8,795 bases of DNA, from contig CAZDOL010000011.1 of NCBI GenBank assembly GCA_964507075.1, forward strand, positions 5,342-14,136. The letters run 5' to 3'. The stretch comes from an uncultured Gammaproteobacteria bacterium (lineage in GTDB: Bacteria > Patescibacteriota > Patescibacteriia > UBA2591 > UBA6264). A program made the translations under genes and the position numbers. Positions within the stretch are counted from its first letter, which is position 1, and each line of letters starts with the position of its first letter. The notes beneath the pieces were generated by a model. The model had not been told where the DNA came from, made no database searches, and saw only the letters and a list, made by a program, of their open reading frames with translations. Below are positions 2,071 through 8,795 of the stretch, piece by piece.

Positions 2071-2526
2071 ATGCAGAAAGTTTTAATTTTGACCTTAGTA
2101 TTGTTTTTAGTTTTGTTATTAGTGTTGTTGTTTGGAGTTTTTCAAAAGAAAAAGCAAGGTCAAGTGTGTTTTAATGATTATTGTTTTGAGGTTGAAATAG
2201 CTCAAAATTTGGCACAAAGGACAAAGGGTCTGATGTTTAGAGAAAAGTTGGAAGAAAATCAAGGCATGCTTTTTGTTTTTAGTTCAGAAAAACAGCATAG
2301 TTTTTGGATGAAAAATGTTTCTTTTCCTTTAGATATCCTTTGGTTAAATAGTAATCAAGAGGTTGTTTTTATTAGTCATAATAGTCAACCTTGTGTTGGG
2401 TTAAAATGTTTGGCTATTAAGCCTAACCAGAAAGCCCAATATGTCTTAGAGATTAAAGGAGGATTAGCTGATAAAATCGGCATCAAGGAAGGAAGTAAAT
2501 TAATTTTTAGTGAAAATATTATTTGA
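2071..2526 (+). CDS. DUF192 (COG1430) family exported protein with N-terminal signal anchor
   Basis: Motifs 'RTKGLMFREKL...GMLFVF...FWMKNVSFPLDILWLN' match the DUF192 signature (GLM..., GMLF, fWMknt..pLDi). N-terminal hydrophobic segment VLILTLVLFLVLLLVLLFGVF followed by KKK. Start set at ATG 2071, 11 nt after AAGGAA (2055-2060), the only clear Shine-Dalgarno in the window. The track's GTG at 2062 abuts that RBS. Two Cx4C pairs (2167-2184, 2392-2409). TGA stop. Confidence 0.85.
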   Translation: MQKVLILTLVLFLVLLLVLLFGVFQKKKQGQVCFNDYCFEVEIAQNLAQRTKGLMFREKLEENQGMLFVFSSEKQHSFWMKNVSFPLDILWLNSNQEVVFISHNSQPCVGLKCLAIKPNQKAQYVLEIKGGLADKIGIKEGSKLIFSENII

Positions 2527-2560
2527 TAATTATAAATTATTTTTTAAGTTAAAAAATTCT

Positions 2561-4021
2561 ATGAAAGTAAAGGGAACGTTGACTATTATTTTTTTAATCG
2601 CTTTGTTTTTCATTCCTCAATTTAGTCAAGCGCAAGAATCTCAAATTGAGCATGATTTTTGTATGGTATATTTTACGGGAGTAGGTTGCACTCATTGCGC
2701 TAATGCCGATCCAATTGTTTTAACCCAATTACCGTCTGAATATTCTAATTTAGTAGTAGTGGAGTATGAGGTTTATCAGAATAGAGGGAATGCTCCTCTA
2801 TTGTATCAATATGATGAAAAATATAATTCTGGATTAGGGATTCCTTTGTTGATTTTCGGAGAAGACGATAAACTTGCTGGTGATAATCCTATTTTGAGAA
2901 ATATTAGAAAAATTATTGAAGAAAAACAAACCAATCCCTTAGCTTGTTTAAATGGGTTAATGTCTTGTTTCTGTGAAACCAACATAAACGATTTGCCTAG
3001 GTTTCCTAAAATTTGGCAACAAGGAAAAATTTTAATTAAAGACAAAACATCTAATGAGTTGTTATTATCAAAAACAAAAAGTGACCAATTATTTAAAGCA
3101 TTATTAAAGTCATATGATATAGAAAAGAATTTAGAGGGAATTGAATATGAAAAAATAACTCCGCTAAAGGTTGCTTTATCTAGTCAAAATATTGAATTTG
3201 ATAAAGCTATAAAAATAGGAGATTGGGTTTTTCAATGGAATGATGGAGGACGAAAAGAGAATTGGATTATAGCTGATGAAGAAAACAAAGATAAGGGTGA
3301 AGAATTATTGGTAGAAGGATCTCAGCCAAAATTTACTATTGCAAAGATTCTATCATTAGCAATTGTTGATGCTATAAATCCATGTGCTTTAGCTGTTTTG
3401 ATTTTAATGTTAACCGCAATTTTAGCATATAATCCAGGAAAAAGAAAAAATATTATTTTGGCTGGATTAGCTTTTGTATCAGCAGTTTTTATAATGTATT
3501 TAATTTATGGATTGCTTATTGTTAAATTTTTTCAAGTAATACAGGGATTGAGCGCGATTAGATTATGGTTGTATAGGGCACTAGGGCTTATAGCGATTGT
3601 TCTTGGAGTATTAAATATTAAGGATTTTATTAAATATAAGCCAGGCAGTATTGGAACAGAAATGCCAATGTTCATGCGACCGAAAGTTAAAAAAATTATT
3701 TCTGGAATTACTTCTCCAAAAGGAGCTTTTGTTGTTGGACTTTTTGTGACTTTATTTCTTTTGCCCTGCACTATTGGTCCCTATATTATTGTAGGCGGAA
3801 TTTTATCTGCCTTAGAATTCTTAAAAATTTTGCCTTTGTTAATTTTTTATAATTTAGTTTTTGTAACCCCCATGCTTGTTATTATAGGTTTGGTGTATTG
3901 GAGATTTAGTAAAATAGGAGATGTCTCAGTATGGAAAGAAAAAAATATAAATAAGCTTCATTTAATAACTGGTTTAATAATGTTTATTCTTGGGATAGCG
4001 ATGGTTTTTTCATTGATATAA
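2561..4021 (+). CDS. Exported thioredoxin-fold (CxxC) domain fused via an unassigned middle region to a CcdA/DsbD-type six-TM thiol-disulfide electron-transfer membrane domain
   Basis: Start at ATG 2561 gives the signal peptide MKVKGTLTIIFLIALFFIPQFSQA|QE. Trx-like 'MVYFTGVGCTHCANA' (CxxC codons 2687-2698) with a later 'GIPLLIF' cis-Pro-like strand. About 120 aa are unassigned. There are six predicted TM helices, with the hallmark Cys in TM1 ('DAINPCALAV', TGT 3383-3385) and in TM4 ('FLLPCTIGPY', TGC 3767-3769), as in CcdA/DsbD-beta. The track's GTG start at 2510 would overlap DUF192 and bury the signal peptide. Confidence 0.8.
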   Translation: MKVKGTLTIIFLIALFFIPQFSQAQESQIEHDFCMVYFTGVGCTHCANADPIVLTQLPSEYSNLVVVEYEVYQNRGNAPLLYQYDEKYNSGLGIPLLIFGEDDKLAGDNPILRNIRKIIEEKQTNPLACLNGLMSCFCETNINDLPRFPKIWQQGKILIKDKTSNELLLSKTKSDQLFKALLKSYDIEKNLEGIEYEKITPLKVALSSQNIEFDKAIKIGDWVFQWNDGGRKENWIIADEENKDKGEELLVEGSQPKFTIAKILSLAIVDAINPCALAVLILMLTAILAYNPGKRKNIILAGLAFVSAVFIMYLIYGLLIVKFFQVIQGLSAIRLWLYRALGLIAIVLGVLNIKDFIKYKPGSIGTEMPMFMRPKVKKIISGITSPKGAFVVGLFVTLFLLPCTIGPYIIVGGILSALEFLKILPLLIFYNLVFVTPMLVIIGLVYWRFSKIGDVSVWKEKNINKLHLITGLIMFILGIAMVFSLI

Positions 4022-4947: not shown

Positions 4948-5175
4948 ATGGCTATTGAGGTTAGAAGAAAGCAAAAAGAGGCGTTAAATGTTTTTTTGCG
5001 TCGTTTTTCCGAAAAGGTAAAGCGAAGTGGTATTATTAATCAATCTAAAAAAGCAAGATTTCGCGTTAAGCCCAAAAGCAAAAATTTAAGAAGAAAAAGC
5101 GCTTTGGAACGCAATAAAAAAACCGAAAGGATAAATTTTTTAAAAAAGATAGGCAAATTAAAGCCAGGAAAATAA
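4948..5175 (+). CDS. rpsU: 30S ribosomal protein bS21
   Basis: 75-aa highly basic protein. 'EALNVFLRRFSEKVKRSGII...ARFRVKPKSK..RRKSALER' parallels E. coli S21 'DVALRRFKRSCEKAGVL...[20 protein letters not shown]'. Starts 12 nt after the parB stop. Confidence 0.8.
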   Translation: MAIEVRRKQKEALNVFLRRFSEKVKRSGIINQSKKARFRVKPKSKNLRRKSALERNKKTERINFLKKIGKLKPGK

Positions 5176-5225
5176 AATAAGCTATTTATGGTTTATAAGC
5201 ATAATAGTTGTTAACATAAAAAGTT

Positions 5226-5324
5226 ATGTATTTTCAACGACCCAAGACGAACAAGTTTCTTTTAGTTGCTTCTATTTCTTTAATTTTTCTTTTTGTTTTA
5301 ATCGTACCATCTTTAGTTCAGGCT
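5226..5324 (+). other. Predicted Sec signal peptide of the giant protein (aa 1-33)
   Basis: Basic n-region (RPKTNK), 20-residue hydrophobic core, and V-Q-A|Q-D, which fits the A-x-A-type signal peptidase I rule. Confidence 0.7.
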
Positions 5325-8300
5325 CAAGATTTGGGTGCTGATTTAGTGGCAGAAAGCGCCACTAGCGCTGGCATAGGAGAATCAAGTTTGCCTGCTATTT
5401 TGGGAAGAATTTTTAAAATAGTTTTAAGCGTTTTGGGGTTAATAGCCTTGGTTGTCGTTATTATAGCTGGAATACAATGGATGACCTCTGGCGGAAATTC
5501 TGAAAAAATTAAAAAAGCAAAAGCTCTTTTATCAGCAGGCCTTATTGGTTTGCTGATTATTGTTTGTGCTTACGCAATGGTGAGTTTTATTATTTCTTCT
5601 TTGGGTGGAGTCACTGAAGGAACAGGATGTACGCCGGGCAACTGTTGTGGCGATGGGTATGCATGGAATTCTGATTGTGAATGTGATGATTGGGTCTATC
5701 CAAGCTGCGCGACAGGTCAAAGCCAGGAATATTTTCGTTTAACACGAGGAGAAGCTAATTTTGATATTGATAATAAAATATATTTATGTAGCAACATTAG
5801 AGCTGTTTTTAATCATAATATTAATGAAAATACAGTTAATGTAGCTGTTGCTAATTCTACATTAAAAGTTATTGATTCTGACGACATTATTATTAGTGGG
5901 ACTTTTCAGACAACAGGTGGGTCAATATTATTTACTCCCGAAAATTTTTGGACAGAATTTAGTGATTATAAATTAATAATACCCAAGACAATTAGCGATA
6001 ACAATAACAAATATCTTGTGGGTTGCGCCATGGGATTTAGTCCAGCAGGCGGTTGCAGTAACAACGGAACCGTAGATTGGGATTTTACAACAAACAACGA
6101 AGAGGATATAACTCCGCCCTTTGTAGATCATGCCTATCCTATAATGGACATTGATGATCCATTATATCCTGACAAAAATGTCTCTCGAGCGCCAATGATT
6201 GATGTAGTTTTTAATGAAAATATAGATTACGCAACTATTGTTGACACAAATCATGCAGATTATAATGCAAATGATTCAAATACTTGGCATCCAATAGTAA
6301 ATAATTTTCAATTGTGTGAAATAGAGGCACAAAATACAGAATGCAACCCAGTCAATATATATAATAATGATAATTTTATCATTGTACCAATATCACAAGG
6401 GTTTAGGATTTTTATTACAAATGCTCAATGGTTAGATGCTTTTACGTGGTATGAAATTCAGGTTGATGGAGTGTATGATATGTGCAACAACCAGATGGCA
6501 GATAGTCAATCATGGGAATTTCAAACTAATAACAATATTCCTGGAGCGCAGGATTGGTGGCCAAAAGGTAGTAATGTATGTCCAGATGCTTTAGTTGGTA
6601 TTCGTTTTGCCACTAGTATGTACGAGTATGAAGTTAAAATGAGTGTTGTTAATGATGATGGTACCACAGAATTTGAAGGATTGATCAAACCCTCTGATAT
6701 TGCTAGCCCTGGTCCATACGAGACAACATTAACCACTGGTAGTGGTTCTTTAAAAGTTGTTGATGACGATTACATAAATGTTTCAAATCAGTTTAAGATT
6801 TTTCAATTAGAGTTAAATGATACTTTAAATATTGACACTCCTTATACCATTGAAGTTACAACAGATTTAGTAATAGATGTTGACGGCAATACTCTGGATA
6901 AAAGTTGGAGTTTTGATGTGACAAATATGCAAGATTGCGCGTGTGAGCCGATCATTTATGAAGTTTTACCTAGTAGTGGAGCTCGACAATCTTGCGTAAC
7001 AATAAGGGGCCATTGTTTTGCTGGGACAACAGAAAGACCTGCCACCATTAACGAGTTGTGGTTTGATGATACCCAGGATCCTCCGCCCCCAAATGGACAA
7101 CAATTTATTGACGGATCCTTGAGGGCAGACATAGAAGGTCATACCGCTAATTCTATTGTTACTATAATACCAGAAAATTTTGGAGACCCTCTGATTGACC
7201 CAAACACATCGGATATTCCAGACTTTTTAGGTGTGGGCATAAAAATTATTTATGATGATAATCAGGAAGAAGTAGAGAATTTTTCTGAAAGTCAATTTAC
7301 AGTTATTGACAATGCTTTAGCACAAGGTCCTTGTATTTGGAGGTTAGATCCCAATAATGGGTATGTAGGAGATAGGTTTAACGTTGAAGGCATTAAATTT
7401 GGTTTGACTCCTGGTGTAATTAATATAGAGGATTGGTTCTTTAACTTAACTTATAGCGGCGCCTGGAATGAAAATTTAATAGAACAAGTTATGGTACCTG
7501 GTTTTACTACTGCCGGAGATAGAGACGTAACAGTTGTTGATGGTAGTGGTTTTGTTAGTAATCCCGTTCCCTTTGATGTTATATTTGACCGACCAGAGGT
7601 AAAAGAATTTGGTTGTAATCCTCCTCCAGTTTACTCTTCGCCCAGCCCGTATAAAAATACTGAGGATGCTTGCGTTGCTATTGATTTGATTCTTGAGTTT
7701 ACTAAAGATATGATAGATTTTGGTCCGGATGGTGTTTTAAATATAAATAATTATACTATTCAAAATTGTGGCACAGATGATATTTATAACGAAGCATATT
7801 GTAGTCAAATTTATTATAATCCCTCTAATGCCCAGTTTGATGACCTGAATTCTAGTAGAATAGTTCGGCTTTCTTTGTCCTCGGCATTTACAGTTGGAAC
7901 ATGGTATACAATTAATGTATTAGCTAATGTTAAGTCAGATGAAGATGTTGGGATGGAGGAAAATTATGTGTGGCATTTTAAAACAAGAGATACAGATGTT
8001 TGTCCTGTGGCAAGTATAAATTTGACTCCCCAAAATGAAACTATTACTGGTTGTTCTGGCGCTAAAGCTTTTGAGGCTGAACCCTATGCTAGTAATTGTA
8101 ATGCCTTAACCCCTGGTTCTTATTCATATGATTGGTCTTCTTCTAATCCTGCTGCTGCGACCATAGGCACTGGGAATACTTATCAAAATATTGCAAGCGC
8201 AGCTGGAGCTGGCTCAACATGGATTAGAGTTGAAGAAGCAGATTCTTTTAAATGGACCAAAGAATTATTAAATGTAAATTGTTGCAGAACTAACGAAGAT

Positions 8301-8795
8301 TGTTATGATCCAGATGGAGATGGCTCTGATCGTTGTTTAGGGAGTGAATGTAATGATGATTATGGTATTTGTACGCCCGTAATTAACGATTTTAACCCAG
8401 AATCTGGTTATTATAATGATTGGGTTAGTATTCATGGTTGTTGGTTTAATAATTATAACGCAAGTTATAGCAGAGTAAGGTTTAATGAAGAATTGTCAAT
8501 TATTCCTTTTGATAAGTGCACCAGCTCTGCTTGGCAGAATGAGCAAATTATTGCGGAAGTTCCAGAGACGGGAAATCCCTTTGGATATATTCAGGTTACT
8601 TCAGCGCCCTACGGTAGTGCTTTTGTTGTTTCAAGTTCTGATATTTTTAATGATTACGGCTCTCCTCGTGCAGGAATTTGTAATTTAAGACCAAGTCATG
8701 GGATTCCTGGTTCAATTACTCAACTGACTGCGAATGATAATTTGTTGGGACAGGGTGGTAATGATGATGTATATTATGGAACTGAAAAAGCTATT
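5226..8795 (+). CDS. Giant secreted, membrane-anchored, Cys-rich surface protein, 3'-truncated by the window edge: signal peptide + VirB2/TrbC-like pilin hairpin + Ig-like (SbsA/Big_5-like, Big_2-like) and IPT/TIG-like module array
   Basis: Not in the supplied ORF track. I translated manually from ATG 5226 and checked the frame at 5520, 6000, 6540, 7020, 7500, 8280 and 8760. This gives 1190 sense codons and no stop before 8795. N-terminus MYFQRPKTNKFLLVASISLIFLFVLIVPSLVQA|QD. Recurrent module ends are W-x-F-x-T (VDWDFTT, SWEFQT, SWSFDVT, VWHFKT). IPT-like starts are CEPIIYEVLPSSG, CIWRLDPNNG, CTPVINDFNPESG and CNLRPSHGIPG. A Big_2-like 'YDWSSSNPAAATIG' is also present. Confidence 0.9.
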   Translation, partial: MYFQRPKTNKFLLVASISLIFLFVLIVPSLVQAQDLGADLVAESATSAGIGESSLPAILGRIFKIVLSVLGLIALVVVIIAGIQWMTSGGNSEKIKKAKALLSAGLIGLLIIVCAYAMVSFIISSLGGVTEGTGCTPGNCCGDGYAWNSDCECDDWVYPSCATGQSQEYFRLTRGEANFDIDNKIYLCSNIRAVFNHNINENTVNVAVANSTLKVIDSDDIIISGTFQTTGGSILFTPENFWTEFSDYKLIIPKTISDNNNKYLVGCAMGFSPAGGCSNNGTVDWDFTTNNEEDITPPFVDHAYPIMDIDDPLYPDKNVSRAPMIDVVFNENIDYATIVDTNHADYNANDSNTWHPIVNNFQLCEIEAQNTECNPVNIYNNDNFIIVPISQGFRIFITNAQWLDAFTWYEIQVDGVYDMCNNQMADSQSWEFQTNNNIPGAQDWWPKGSNVCPDALVGIRFATSMYEYEVKMSVVNDDGTTEFEGLIKPSDIASPGPYETTLTTGSGSLKVVDDDYINVSNQFKIFQLELNDTLNIDTPYTIEVTTDLVIDVDGNTLDKSWSFDVTNMQDCACEPIIYEVLPSSGARQSCVTIRGHCFAGTTERPATINELWFDDTQDPPPPNGQQFIDGSLRADIEGHTANSIVTIIPENFGDPLIDPNTSDIPDFLGVGIKIIYDDNQEEVENFSESQFTVIDNALAQGPCIWRLDPNNGYVGDRFNVEGIKFGLTPGVINIEDWFFNLTYSGAWNENLIEQVMVPGFTTAGDRDVTVVDGSGFVSNPVPFDVIFDRPEVKEFGCNPPPVYSSPSPYKNTEDACVAIDLILEFTKDMIDFGPDGVLNINNYTIQNCGTDDIYNEAYCSQIYYNPSNAQFDDLNSSRIVRLSLSSAFTVGTWYTINVLANVKSDEDVGMEENYVWHFKTRDTDVCPVASINLTPQNETITGCSGAKAFEAEPYASNCNALTPGSYSYDWSSSNPAAATIGTGNTYQNIASAAGAGSTWIRVEEADSFKWTKELLNVNCCRTNEDCYDPDGDGSDRCLGSECNDDYGICTPVINDFNPESGYYNDWVSIHGCWFNNYNASYSRVRFNEELSIIPFDKCTSSAWQNEQIIAEVPETGNPFGYIQVTSAPYGSAFVVSSSDIFNDYGSPRAGICNLRPSHGIPGSITQLTANDNLLGQGGNDDVYYGTEKAI
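5388..5603 (+). other. VirB2/TrbC-like (T4SS-pilin-like) helix-loop-helix membrane hairpin (aa 55-126 of the giant protein)
   Basis: LPAILGRIFKIVLSVLGLIALVVVIIAGIQW-MTSGGNSEKIKKAK-ALLSAGLIGLLIIVCAYAMVSFIISSL: two long hydrophobic helices around a short Lys-rich loop. The 'WMTSGGNxEKxKKAK' loop matches my recollection of the small T4SS-pilin family proteins common in CPR bacteria. This rests on recognition, not an HMM result. Confidence 0.6.

Follow-up and report, generated by a model that had tools for sequence, protein, structure and literature searches.

The window, which is the whole 8,795-nt stretch of DNA analysed here, carries on its forward strand the 5′ part of a gene for a giant surface protein. 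The start codon was placed at the ATG at position 5226, the first after an in-frame TAA at 5217, and the reading frame is still open at the window end after 1,190 codons. The features of the locus are as follows:

4948–5175, forward strand: rpsU (ribosomal protein S21), 50 nt upstream of the giant gene (ORF; PF01165 S21, likewise placed in the loci L010, L011, and L018)
5226–8795, forward strand: 5′ part of the giant surface protein gene (3,570 nt, residues 1–1190 of a 9,330-nt gene that runs past the window; from translation)
5226–5324, forward strand: Sec-type signal peptide, residues 1–33 (from hydropathy and charges; predicted cleavage VQA↓QD)
5325–5399, forward strand: exposed N-terminal segment of the predicted mature protein, residues 34–58 (acidic, without K/R; conserved aGlg...Lp..iG motif up to TM1)
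5382–5591, forward strand: PF18895 T4SS_pilin match, residues 53–122 (34.5–38.3 bits against a gathering threshold of 26.6)
5400–5480, forward strand: TM1, helix 1 of the hairpin, residues 59–85 (from hydropathy and AlphaFold2; family motif AGIQW at its end)
5481–5525, forward strand: basic loop MTSGGNSEKIKKAKA, predicted to be cytoplasmic, residues 86–100 (charge +4/−1; motif WMTSGG..EK..KAK)
5526–5600, forward strand: TM2, helix 2 of the hairpin, residues 101–125 (from hydropathy and AlphaFold2; motif IGL.II..AYA...F), which would bring the chain back outside
5601–5720, forward strand: junction, residues 126–165 (LGGVTEGTG linker, then the Cys-rich knot GCTPGNCCGDGYAWNSDCECDDWVYPSC; from aligned fused and free proteins)
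5790–6092, forward strand: Big_5 (bacterial Ig-like) domain, residues 189–289, the best-scoring of four in the window (PF13205, 77 bits)

The full length of the protein was taken from three metagenome contigs (L001, L002, and L003), each of which contains the window as an exact substring. The complete open reading frame (L003, 6224–15553) encodes 3,109 residues of a predicted secreted, membrane-tethered protein, in which T4SS_pilin, Big_5, and five fn3 matches were found with Pfam. A form of 2,817 residues in the NCBI single-cell assembly was considered as a repeat-number variant and rejected, being identical over 2,815 residues and then truncated; the genes downstream of it are inverted relative to the three metagenome contigs, and an assembly chimera is the likely cause.

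The neighbours of the giant gene belong to housekeeping and the cell envelope (parAB, rpsU, yqeY, TSP3_bac, MreC, and PBP2), and the order rpsU-(yqeY)-giant-TSP3-MreC is conserved in many collinear homologues. The VirB4, VirB6, or VirD4-like genes for which the preliminary description had proposed to check the contig did not turn up: around the giant gene and around four homologues, neither these nor VirB3 nor a gene for a free pilin occurs within 10 kb, and no T4SS gene was found within 10 kb across six genomic contexts. The same holds for T4SS Pfam families within 10 kb in L001–L006, L010, L011, L012, L018, and L019–L021, and for a Pfam scan of the seven downstream ORFs. No further hairpin ORF was present in the 20–24 kb loci L001–L006, and no TraF-like maturation peptidase was seen near the giant gene.

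The signal peptide comprises a basic n-region (R5, K7, and K10) and the h-region LLVASISLIFLFVLIVPSL, and cleavage would be expected after VQA. The "AQ" at the predicted cleavage position is conserved among fused and free members alike, and A-x-A-Q is invariant across the four VirB2/TrbC sequences of alignment A2, matching the site of the giant. The class III signal peptide of type IV pilins (G↓F/M-T-L-x-E) is absent; the N-terminus, MYFQRPKTNKFLLVAS..., is that of a classical Sec substrate, followed by two transmembrane helices. Positions 5388–5603, where the preliminary description had recognised a pilin-type hairpin behind a signal peptide, correspond exactly to residues 55–126 of the giant protein, and the recognition was borne out both by the PF18895 match and by AlphaFold2, which, given residues 34–132 and a 45-sequence alignment, predicted a confident hairpin (pLDDT 83.5, helices above 90), with residues 34–58 forming a short helix and then the onset of a long one.

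Over the whole 3,109 residues, the Kyte-Doolittle hydropathy exceeds 1.6 in three 19-residue windows only, one in the signal peptide and one in each helix of the hairpin. The LP.T[GAS] motif is absent from the entire protein, and its C-terminus (...CEGGGGGGS) has no hydrophobic segment, so that a C-terminal cell-wall anchor was excluded. A cytoplasmic location of the array was likewise excluded by its 140 Cys residues, its Ig/fn3 content, and the flanking charges. The positive-inside argument made earlier, which put the loop in the cytoplasm and the array outside, thus holds up well: the loop carries +4/−1, the flanks of the hairpin are free of K/R, and the array is acidic and rich in Cys. Given that there is neither an LPXTG motif nor a hydrophobic segment besides the signal peptide and the hairpin, the array would be placed outside the cell with the hairpin as its sole tether, and display of the protein on the surface by this single anchor is very probable.

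Beyond TM2, a further ~2,980 residues follow, made up of Ig-like, Cys-rich, and fn3 modules, and the ectodomain has a net charge of −291. The Ig/IPT array that had been proposed downstream of the hairpin was recovered by Pfam as four Big_5 stretches within the window, to which the five fn3 repeats are added beyond it. In the alignment, the chain of free pilins goes no more than about 10 residues past TM2, stopping at the point from which the fused proteins run on and at which the latter carry a conserved G.TG or Gly-rich junction; in many fused members, G-rich sequence and a GC.PG.CC motif follow.

Membership of the pilin family was assessed by several profile methods. The T4SS pilin model PF18895, which the preliminary description had named, gave a significant match (34.5 bits with the whole protein and 38.3 bits with residues 1–140; E 1e-9 to 2e-8) covering profile positions 3–71 of 71. 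The TrbC/VirB2 model PF04956, proposed alongside it, fared less well with the window protein itself (11–15.4 bits, E 0.02–0.5, below the gathering threshold of 27.9), and the NCBIfam model for the Mbov_0395 pilin-like protein scored 27 bits, below its cut-off of 40. The PF04956 threshold is passed by two fused homologues, P0138 (30.7) and P0153 (39.4), and the domain is also found in roughly one in five of the best-scoring free relatives, which bear names such as "pilin" or "VirB2 component". When a 45-sequence profile of the hairpin was compared by hhalign with four VirB2/TrbC sequences, 59 columns aligned in register (Prob 54%, E 1.3e-4; Prob 25% with VirB2 alone), TM1 lining up with ...AIGISWM of Agrobacterium VirB2. 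Against all PDB chains, the hairpin-family profile matched no solved T4SS pilin; its sole matches, designed "Pizza" β-propeller repeats aligned over a 20-residue loop motif, were judged spurious. A Foldseek search of the predicted hairpin against the PDB gave no match with E below 1 and was headed by generic helical hairpins (ATP synthase c and CHMP4B), which renders the fold non-discriminating.

An exhaustive phmmer search with residues 1–140 retrieved 31,630 representative proteins at E ≤ 1e-3, of which 4,450 reached E ≤ 1e-10, and a word-index homology search found five free pilins, the giant itself not being among its matches. Free pilins are 40–55% identical to the module of the giant and have position-specific motifs in common with it, and an alignment with 82 family members spans the module from the signal peptide and its cleavage site through TM1 and the loop to TM2. 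Homology of the module to the Patescibacterial VirB2-like pilins is highly probable.

The architectures of the relatives were examined in the best 150 of the about 31,600 representative phmmer matches. The earlier view of the family as small stand-alone proteins stands insofar as free pilins of 107–182 residues dominate, making up all of the best 120 profile matches, but fusion proved to be no oddity: at least 31 clusters among the matches listed have a single N-terminal hairpin in a protein of 268–3,083 residues, with 140–2,950 residues beyond it. Their extensions are almost always Big_5/TIG/Big_7 and, in all 31 of 31 long single-hairpin proteins, come behind TM2 at the C-terminal end of the hairpin, on the side modelled as outside. 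Many fused homologues are collinear with the giant of the window over at least 800 residues. Extended pilins form a continuum beside the free ones: an array in L007 includes one 297-residue member with a 190-residue N-terminal extension, the final member of the L016 array has 223 residues, and L011 holds a short hairpin ORF in tandem with a 655-residue pilin-Big_5 protein and a pilin-fused ORF of 3,012 residues. A scan of genome contigs yielded two pilin arrays only, L016 and L017. Concatenated "polypilins" with 2–17 hairpins per chain also exist. The supplement of a Patescibacteria T4SS survey has no entry for the genome of the window and gives no protein lengths.

Across 19 giants collinear with that of the window, identity to the latter is 41–87% in the hairpin (mean 57.5%), against a mean of 32.7% in the ectodomain and about 35% in the signal peptide. 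Fused hairpins have a column entropy of 1.28 bits and free ones of 1.43 bits, compared with about 2.5 bits for the signal peptide. At 53 of the 68 hairpin columns, fused and free members agree in their consensus residue, a likeness that is partly built in, as both sets were retrieved by similarity to the hairpin of the window. The most conserved element of the family is the loop motif WMTSGG..EK..KAK, in which W52, M53, and T54 reach at least 90% and G57 is invariant (alignment A1); the loop consensus is identical between the two sets, the giants keeping GF.WMTSGG..EK..KAK of the free pilins.

The reading favoured here, held with moderate confidence, is that the giant is a VirB2-like pilin of modular build, in which the hairpin serves as the anchor of an adhesin and has probably kept its engagement with pilin partners. 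Once the signal peptide has been removed, the two helices would enter the membrane with both ends outside (N-out/C-out) and the Lys-rich loop facing the cytoplasm, like VirB2/TrbC before assembly, a topology suggested by the charges and by family homology. The acidic, disulfide-rich array would fold outside and project as an adhesin or envelope fibre, attached by the hairpin only. The hairpin would still bind the partners of free pilins, whether pilin subunits, the machinery that handles them, or both, and the adhesin would thereby be coupled to pilin assembly. As it is under the same sequence constraints as the free pilins, we infer that the hairpin is more than a greasy anchor; the chances that it keeps pilin-type interactions appear evenly balanced. 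The conserved motif could instead have been kept for insertion into the membrane, for the binding of lipids, or for the stability of the hairpin.

The most serious alternative is a single past fusion between an ancestral pilin gene and that of an Ig-repeat surface protein, after which the hairpin would have become purely a stable two-helix anchor with no link to pilins or the T4SS, the product being a giant adhesin, an S-layer-like protein, or an envelope fibre. The nearest neighbour of a fused hairpin is another fused hairpin in 30 of 32 cases, which fits few or one old fusion event, and the conserved rpsU-yqeY-giant-TSP3_bac-MreC-PBP2 locus is not one of T4SS genes or pilin arrays. Public databases annotate these giants as Ig-like surface proteins ("Ig-like domain-containing protein"), and S-layer proposals for Patescibacteria include large Ig-rich, TM-anchored proteins. 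A pure anchor would need just hydrophobicity, however, and the hairpin is far better conserved than the signal-peptide core and the ectodomain, with the loop motif and glycine positions of free pilins kept across lineages whose ectodomains share only 22–35% identity; in one lineage, moreover, fused genes stand in tandem with a short hairpin ORF. The conservation pattern thus argues against a simple greasy anchor, and this alternative is regarded as a real but lesser possibility.

Incorporation of the giant into an actual pilus, the bolder of the two suggestions made in the preliminary description, is rather unlikely. A cargo of ~3,000 residues on a subunit of a helical pilus could be tolerable only at low stoichiometry, and the literature search found no report of an observed VirB2-type pilus in any Patescibacterium. 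In its fullest form, the proposal would make the pilin-Ig giants the missing adhesin of the Patescibacterial T4SS, their hairpins co-polymerising with free pilins, most plausibly at the tip as the first-incorporated subunit or else as a sparse lateral subunit; we consider this doubtful. Were it true, a monoderm-type epibiont would build a conjugative-type pilus bearing a host-capture array of ~3,000 residues of Ig, fn3, and Cys-knot modules, the giants would replace VirB5 and PrgB, and the polypilins would represent a related route to hard-wired subunit neighbours.

C-terminal processing is established for TrbC and VirB2, and by analogy with this precedent the giant might be a precursor from which cleavage just past TM2 frees the Ig/fn3 array, secreted or wall-bound, and leaves a pilin of normal size. 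The mature protein is predicted to begin with Gln, like T-pilin, A-x-A-Q is kept in both families, and the conserved junction sits where free pilins end; analogy is nevertheless the whole of its basis, the freed array would be without any anchor motif, and no TraF-like peptidase accompanies the gene, all of which makes such processing very unlikely. Convergence of a generic two-TM hairpin on the pilin model by compositional bias, to which the generic fold matches, the many weak Pfam matches to unrelated TM families, and the sub-threshold TrbC score of the window protein might point, is highly improbable in the face of a PF18895 score 8–12 bits over gathering, position-specific motifs in common with free pilins at 40–55% identity, an alignment spanning signal peptide, cleavage site, both helices, and loop, and fused relatives that pass the TrbC threshold.

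The preliminary description knew of no experimentally characterised example of a pilin hairpin joined to a giant Ig array, and the literature search likewise found neither a characterised example nor a description of the architecture; the design is nonetheless widespread in Patescibacteria. This phylum accounts for a very large share of bacterial diversity, many of its members live attached to other microbes, and a T4SS and VirB2-like pilin array are essential in its single genetically tractable species. The giants may link large adhesion arrays to the Patescibacterial pilin system, and a pilin module wired to such arrays would offer a concrete, testable connection between pilin assembly and the grip on the host. 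They would also provide an epitope-rich handle for finding pilin assemblies by cryo-ET or immunolabelling, while fused and free hairpins constitute a natural experiment on which residues matter. Surveys in which each PF18895 match is scored as "VirB2" may count such giants.

Among known systems, the closest are the Patescibacterial VirB2-like pilins (PF18895), the arrays of which were surveyed by Quinonero-Coronel et al. 2025; in Ca. Southlakia epibionticum, a six-gene array (SEML1_0014-0019) is essential and a pilus has been hypothesised. These proteins come from the same phylum and consist of the same module as that of the giant, from the signal peptide and pre-TM segment through TM1, the WMTSGG..EK..KAK loop, and TM2. 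They are small and typically encoded in tandem arrays, often near virB4, whereas the giant adds about 2,980 residues and is encoded by a lone gene among housekeeping genes. Agrobacterium VirB2, RP4 TrbC, and F TraA (PF04956 and relatives) resemble the giant in their long signal peptide, the site of which is of the A-x-A-Q type, their two hydrophobic helices in an N-out/C-out arrangement, and a short basic loop after G..W(M). The loop of the giant is about 8 residues longer, its host is a monoderm-type Patescibacterium, and no virB genes are adjacent; with its huge C-terminal cargo, moreover, it could be cyclised head to tail only after cleavage of the chain.

The likeness to giant Ig-repeat proteins, such as the S-layer candidates proposed for Paceibacterales (bioRxiv 10.1101/2024.05.28.596244), is compositional only: these are also very large, acidic, Ig/fn3-rich, TM-held, and encoded among envelope genes, whereas the anchor of the giant is a conserved pilin-family module and not a generic TM helix. 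For display on a pilus, the modular type IV pilins PilB (vWA module) and PilC (lectin module) of Streptococcus sanguinis provide the best functional analogy (PMC8179133, PMC9934059). The concept is the same, namely a pilin module with adhesive modules on its exposed end that are delivered by a filament, although these pilins belong to an unrelated superfamily with a class III signal peptide, a single N-terminal helix, the T4P machinery, and one grafted domain in place of about 3,000 residues, and their incorporation is experimental whereas the giant is known from sequence. Target-cell contact in T4SSs is otherwise served by surface or tip adhesins of no sequence relation to the giant, namely the soluble helical VirB5, the tip protein of diderms, and the LPXTG-anchored PrgB of enterococcal pCF10, both encoded inside T4SS clusters. 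According to the literature, neither has been detected in Patescibacteria, and a pilin-fused adhesin of the kind described here could fill this gap.

Eight co-directional genes, all on the + strand, make up the window, the last of them a very long ORF. The positions of interest, 5388-5603, correspond exactly to aa 55-126 of this ORF.

Features of the window and of the product of its very long ORF
Gene order, + strand: dCMP deaminase, diacylglycerol kinase, ParA, DUF192 protein, 503-aa SfLAP-family membrane protein, ParB, ribosomal protein S21, then the very long ORF
2510-4021, + strand: SfLAP-family (PF11139) membrane protein, 503 aa, with an N-terminal exported domain carrying a CxxC motif (VGCTHC)
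From 5226, + strand: giant ORF, its ATG being the first start past an in-frame TAA at 5217; 1,190 codons up to the window end, still open
aa 1-33: signal peptide, predicted cleavage between VQA and QD
aa 34-58: acidic segment without Lys or Arg
aa 59-85: hydrophobic helix 1
Between the helices: loop MTSGGNSEKIKKAKA, charge +4/-1
aa 101-125: hydrophobic helix 2
Past helix 2: Gly-rich and Cys-rich junction with no Lys or Arg and six Asp or Glu

The window sequence was found intact, as an exact substring, in the single-cell contig ASNW01000007.1 (GCA_000405165.1) and in several metagenome contigs, on which the giant ORF runs to 3,109 aa. The single-cell assembly (L001:11143-20852) encodes a protein of 2,817 aa, whose first 2,815 aa are identical before it terminates (…TSNWLIF*); the genes that follow (782 aa; a 227-aa TSP3_bac protein) run the opposite way to those in three independent metagenome contigs (L019, L020 and L021) encoding 3,109 aa. 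This shorter form probably arose as a chimera during amplification or assembly.

The module was assigned to the T4SS_pilin family by PF18895, the model proposed for this purpose in the preliminary description, which scored 34.5-38.3 bits (gathering score 26.6) on aa 53-122 and covered 69 of its 71 positions. The pilin-type layout of helix, basic loop and helix after a signal peptide was likewise borne out by the segment map and by AlphaFold2 (45-sequence alignment), which modelled a helical hairpin with confidence (mean pLDDT 83.5, helices above 90). Membership of PF18895 is thus firm; the window protein carries the score and motif of that family, not its usual small, arrayed character. PF04956 (TrbC/VirB2) and the NCBIfam Mbov_0395 pilin-like family matched the same region below their cut-offs, and no T4SS gene accompanies the gene within 10 kb. 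Two fused homologues, P0138 and P0153, did exceed the PF04956 gathering score, and about one fifth of the closest free relatives carry a precomputed PF04956 match. These nearest stand-alone relatives (115-140 aa, 40-55% identity) bear source names such as “pilin” or “type IV secretory pathway VirB2 component”, and 31,630 representative proteins reached E<=1e-3 when aa 1-140 were used as query in an exhaustive phmmer search. Aligned to a reference profile of Agrobacterium VirB2 (tblastn-verified, 100% identity) and three annotated TrbC/VirB2 proteins from conjugative plasmids, the hairpin-family profile scored Prob 54% and E 1.3e-4 over 59 columns, with both helices and the G..W(M) motif in register and a loop some eight residues longer; the Ala-Gln at the predicted signal-peptidase site is conserved in both families. 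Comparison with solved structures yielded only spurious repeat proteins by sequence profile and only generic helical hairpins (E>1) by Foldseek. Homology to classical VirB2/TrbC, which Pfam and the Patescibacterial T4SS literature assume for PF18895 pilins, is therefore probable for the module, and is not strongly shown for the window protein alone.

The Ig-like array said to follow the hairpin was identified as Big_5 modules, together with five fn3 repeats. Because the signal peptide and the two hairpin helices are the only hydrophobic segments in all 3,109 aa, the remainder contains 140 Cys at a net charge of -291, and neither an LPXTG motif nor a C-terminal anchor was found over the full length, the array must, as read from these features, be extracytoplasmic and attached to the membrane by the hairpin alone, in agreement with the topology originally proposed. 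Two genes upstream of this Cys-rich product, the SfLAP-family protein carries NPCA and LPCT motifs in its transmembrane segments, reminiscent of CcdA/DsbD-type thiol-disulfide transporters, and might conceivably assist the oxidative folding of the giant.

Small stand-alone proteins were correctly taken to be typical of the family, as the best 120 profile matches in a set of 5.8 billion proteins were all free pilins of 107-182 aa. The fusion does depart from that norm without being unique: among 158 proteins retrieved by homology searches, 51 were single-hairpin proteins of at most 210 aa, 31 were single-hairpin proteins of 268-3,083 aa and 76 had from two to at least ten hairpins per chain. 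All 31 long single-hairpin proteins have the hairpin N-terminally and the extension after the second helix. PF18895 was present in all 23 fused proteins scanned or annotated, accompanied in 21 by Big_5, TIG or Big_7. In BLASTP many align collinearly with the window protein, over the hairpin and a further 300 to over 800 residues of ectodomain, P0007 being 65% identical over 2,887 aa. P0053 (L018:10001-17179), a collinear homologue of 2,392 aa, additionally contains Laminin_G_3 and CBM_4_9 carbohydrate-binding modules, which points to glycan binding as one putative activity of these ectodomains.

Across 19 collinear giants, the hairpin averaged 57.5% identity to the window protein, compared with 32.7% for the ectodomain and around 35% for the signal peptide. 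The signal peptide is a useful internal control, being a hydrophobic stretch on which hydrophobicity is the main constraint. Column entropy was 1.28 bits in fused and 1.43 bits in free hairpins, while signal-peptide columns had about 2.5 bits. The fused and free consensus residues coincide at 53 of 68 hairpin columns (GF.WMTSGG..EK..KAK....IGL.II..AYAI..F), a resemblance inflated by the retrieval of both sets through similarity to the window hairpin. Mean core identities were 0.51 (fused-fused), 0.48 (free-free) and 0.47 (fused-free), yet in 79 of 83 cases a hairpin and its nearest neighbour shared a class, suggesting that the fusion lineages are old and stable.

Given that the hairpin is the best-conserved part and shares its loop motif with free pilins, it may be more than an N-out/C-out membrane anchor of the array: the same hairpin would still contact other pilins and/or their handling machinery in the manner of a pilin, the reading that we favour and to which we give about an even chance. 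A strong rival, though less likely, is that the hairpin only holds the protein in the membrane, in line with the housekeeping setting of the gene and the lack of a demonstrated pilus; a mere membrane-holding segment, however, would not be expected to remain the best-conserved part, nor to keep the cytoplasmic loop motif of free pilins. Cleavage at the conserved Gly-rich junction to free the array, by analogy with the C-terminal processing of TrbC/VirB2, seems highly improbable. As regards the pilin-type contacts, incorporation into an actual extracellular filament is unlikely. In the structures of F- and T-pili the lumen is lined by the loop between the helices and the termini point outward, so C-terminal cargo would be geometrically compatible with display on a pilus, provided that few subunits bear it or that it sits at the tip.

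The housekeeping setting is itself conserved. The order (parA-parB)-rpsU-(yqeY)-giant-...-TSP3_bac protein(s)-MreC(-PBP2) is kept in at least five lineages (window 4948-8795 and loci L010, L011, L012, L018 and L019; parA-parB upstream in the window and L010) with giants only about 30-40% identical. The giant gives the impression of belonging to the core envelope genes, not to a mobile element or T4SS island. The check for VirB4/VirB6/VirD4-like neighbours proposed earlier came out negative: no VirB4, VirB6, VirB3, VirD4 or relaxase family lies within 10 kb of the giant in the window organism or any homologous locus examined. Seven ORFs downstream of the giant in the window organism gave no T4SS match, and the hairpin HMM detected no second hairpin ORF in the organism's loci. 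Distance from virB4 alone is not decisive, because P0001, the closest free pilin, sits in an eight-gene pilin array itself without a T4SS gene within 10 kb; in the 2025 survey of Patescibacterial T4SS, a pilin was near virB4 in 1,135 of 1,948 assemblies (Quinonero-Coronel et al. 2025).

Other arrangements of the hairpin were encountered. “Polypilins” (e.g. P0008-P0020 and P0028-P0031) carry tandem PF18895 hairpins in one polypeptide, which is led by a single signal peptide and built of units about 95-120 aa long; as each unit has two transmembrane helices, a repeated N-out/C-out topology is consistent. Examples are P0009 (552 aa), P0010 (1,147 aa) and P0011 (1,775 aa, up to 17 matched stretches by phmmer), and two-hairpin proteins of about 235-260 aa are a well-populated class; no description of polypilins was found in the literature. 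Two mutually unrelated tandem pilin arrays, L007:7241-12877 (eight genes) and L016:7920-12756 (seven to eight genes), neither with a T4SS gene within 10 kb, are each directly preceded by a gene for a 463-464-aa SBP_bac_1-type solute-binding protein, that of L016 recognised by length and position only. They include extended members of 297 aa (L007; N-terminal extension, hairpin at the C-terminal end) and 223 aa (L016; Pro-rich C-terminal tail). At L011:9248-21026, three hairpin-bearing ORFs lie in tandem: a yqeY of 250 aa (usually about 150) continuing in frame into a signal-peptide-like segment and hairpin, which may reflect a genuine fusion, loss of a stop codon or a short pilin with its own start inside the ORF, directly followed by ORFs for a pilin-Big_5 protein of 655 aa and a pilin-fused protein of 3,012 aa.

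The pilin module and its phylum-wide family are already known, and the fused architecture is visible in databases under names such as “Ig-like domain-containing protein” or “IPT/TIG domain-containing protein” (source “Patescibacteria group bacterium”). Only small pilins and arrays are discussed in the literature consulted, including the 2025 Patescibacterial T4SS survey, a 2025 T4SS review and the Southlakia Tn-seq paper, whose supplement gives PF18895 seven times, the six rows listed (SEML1_0014-0019) being small proteins; no description was found there of the giant pilin-Ig family, of the conservation of its locus or of the pilin-like constraint on its hairpin. These fusions offer a testable, sequence-derived clue to host attachment and to the structures that Patescibacterial pilins form. 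Since VirB5 and PrgB, the usual T4SS adhesins, have not been detected in Patescibacteria, a pilin-fused giant could fill the role left by their absence. Functionally, the nearest documented concept is that of the modular type IV pilins of Streptococcus sanguinis, in which adhesive modules are grafted on a pilin (PMC8179133, PMC9934059), although these belong to a pilin superfamily unrelated to that of the window hairpin.
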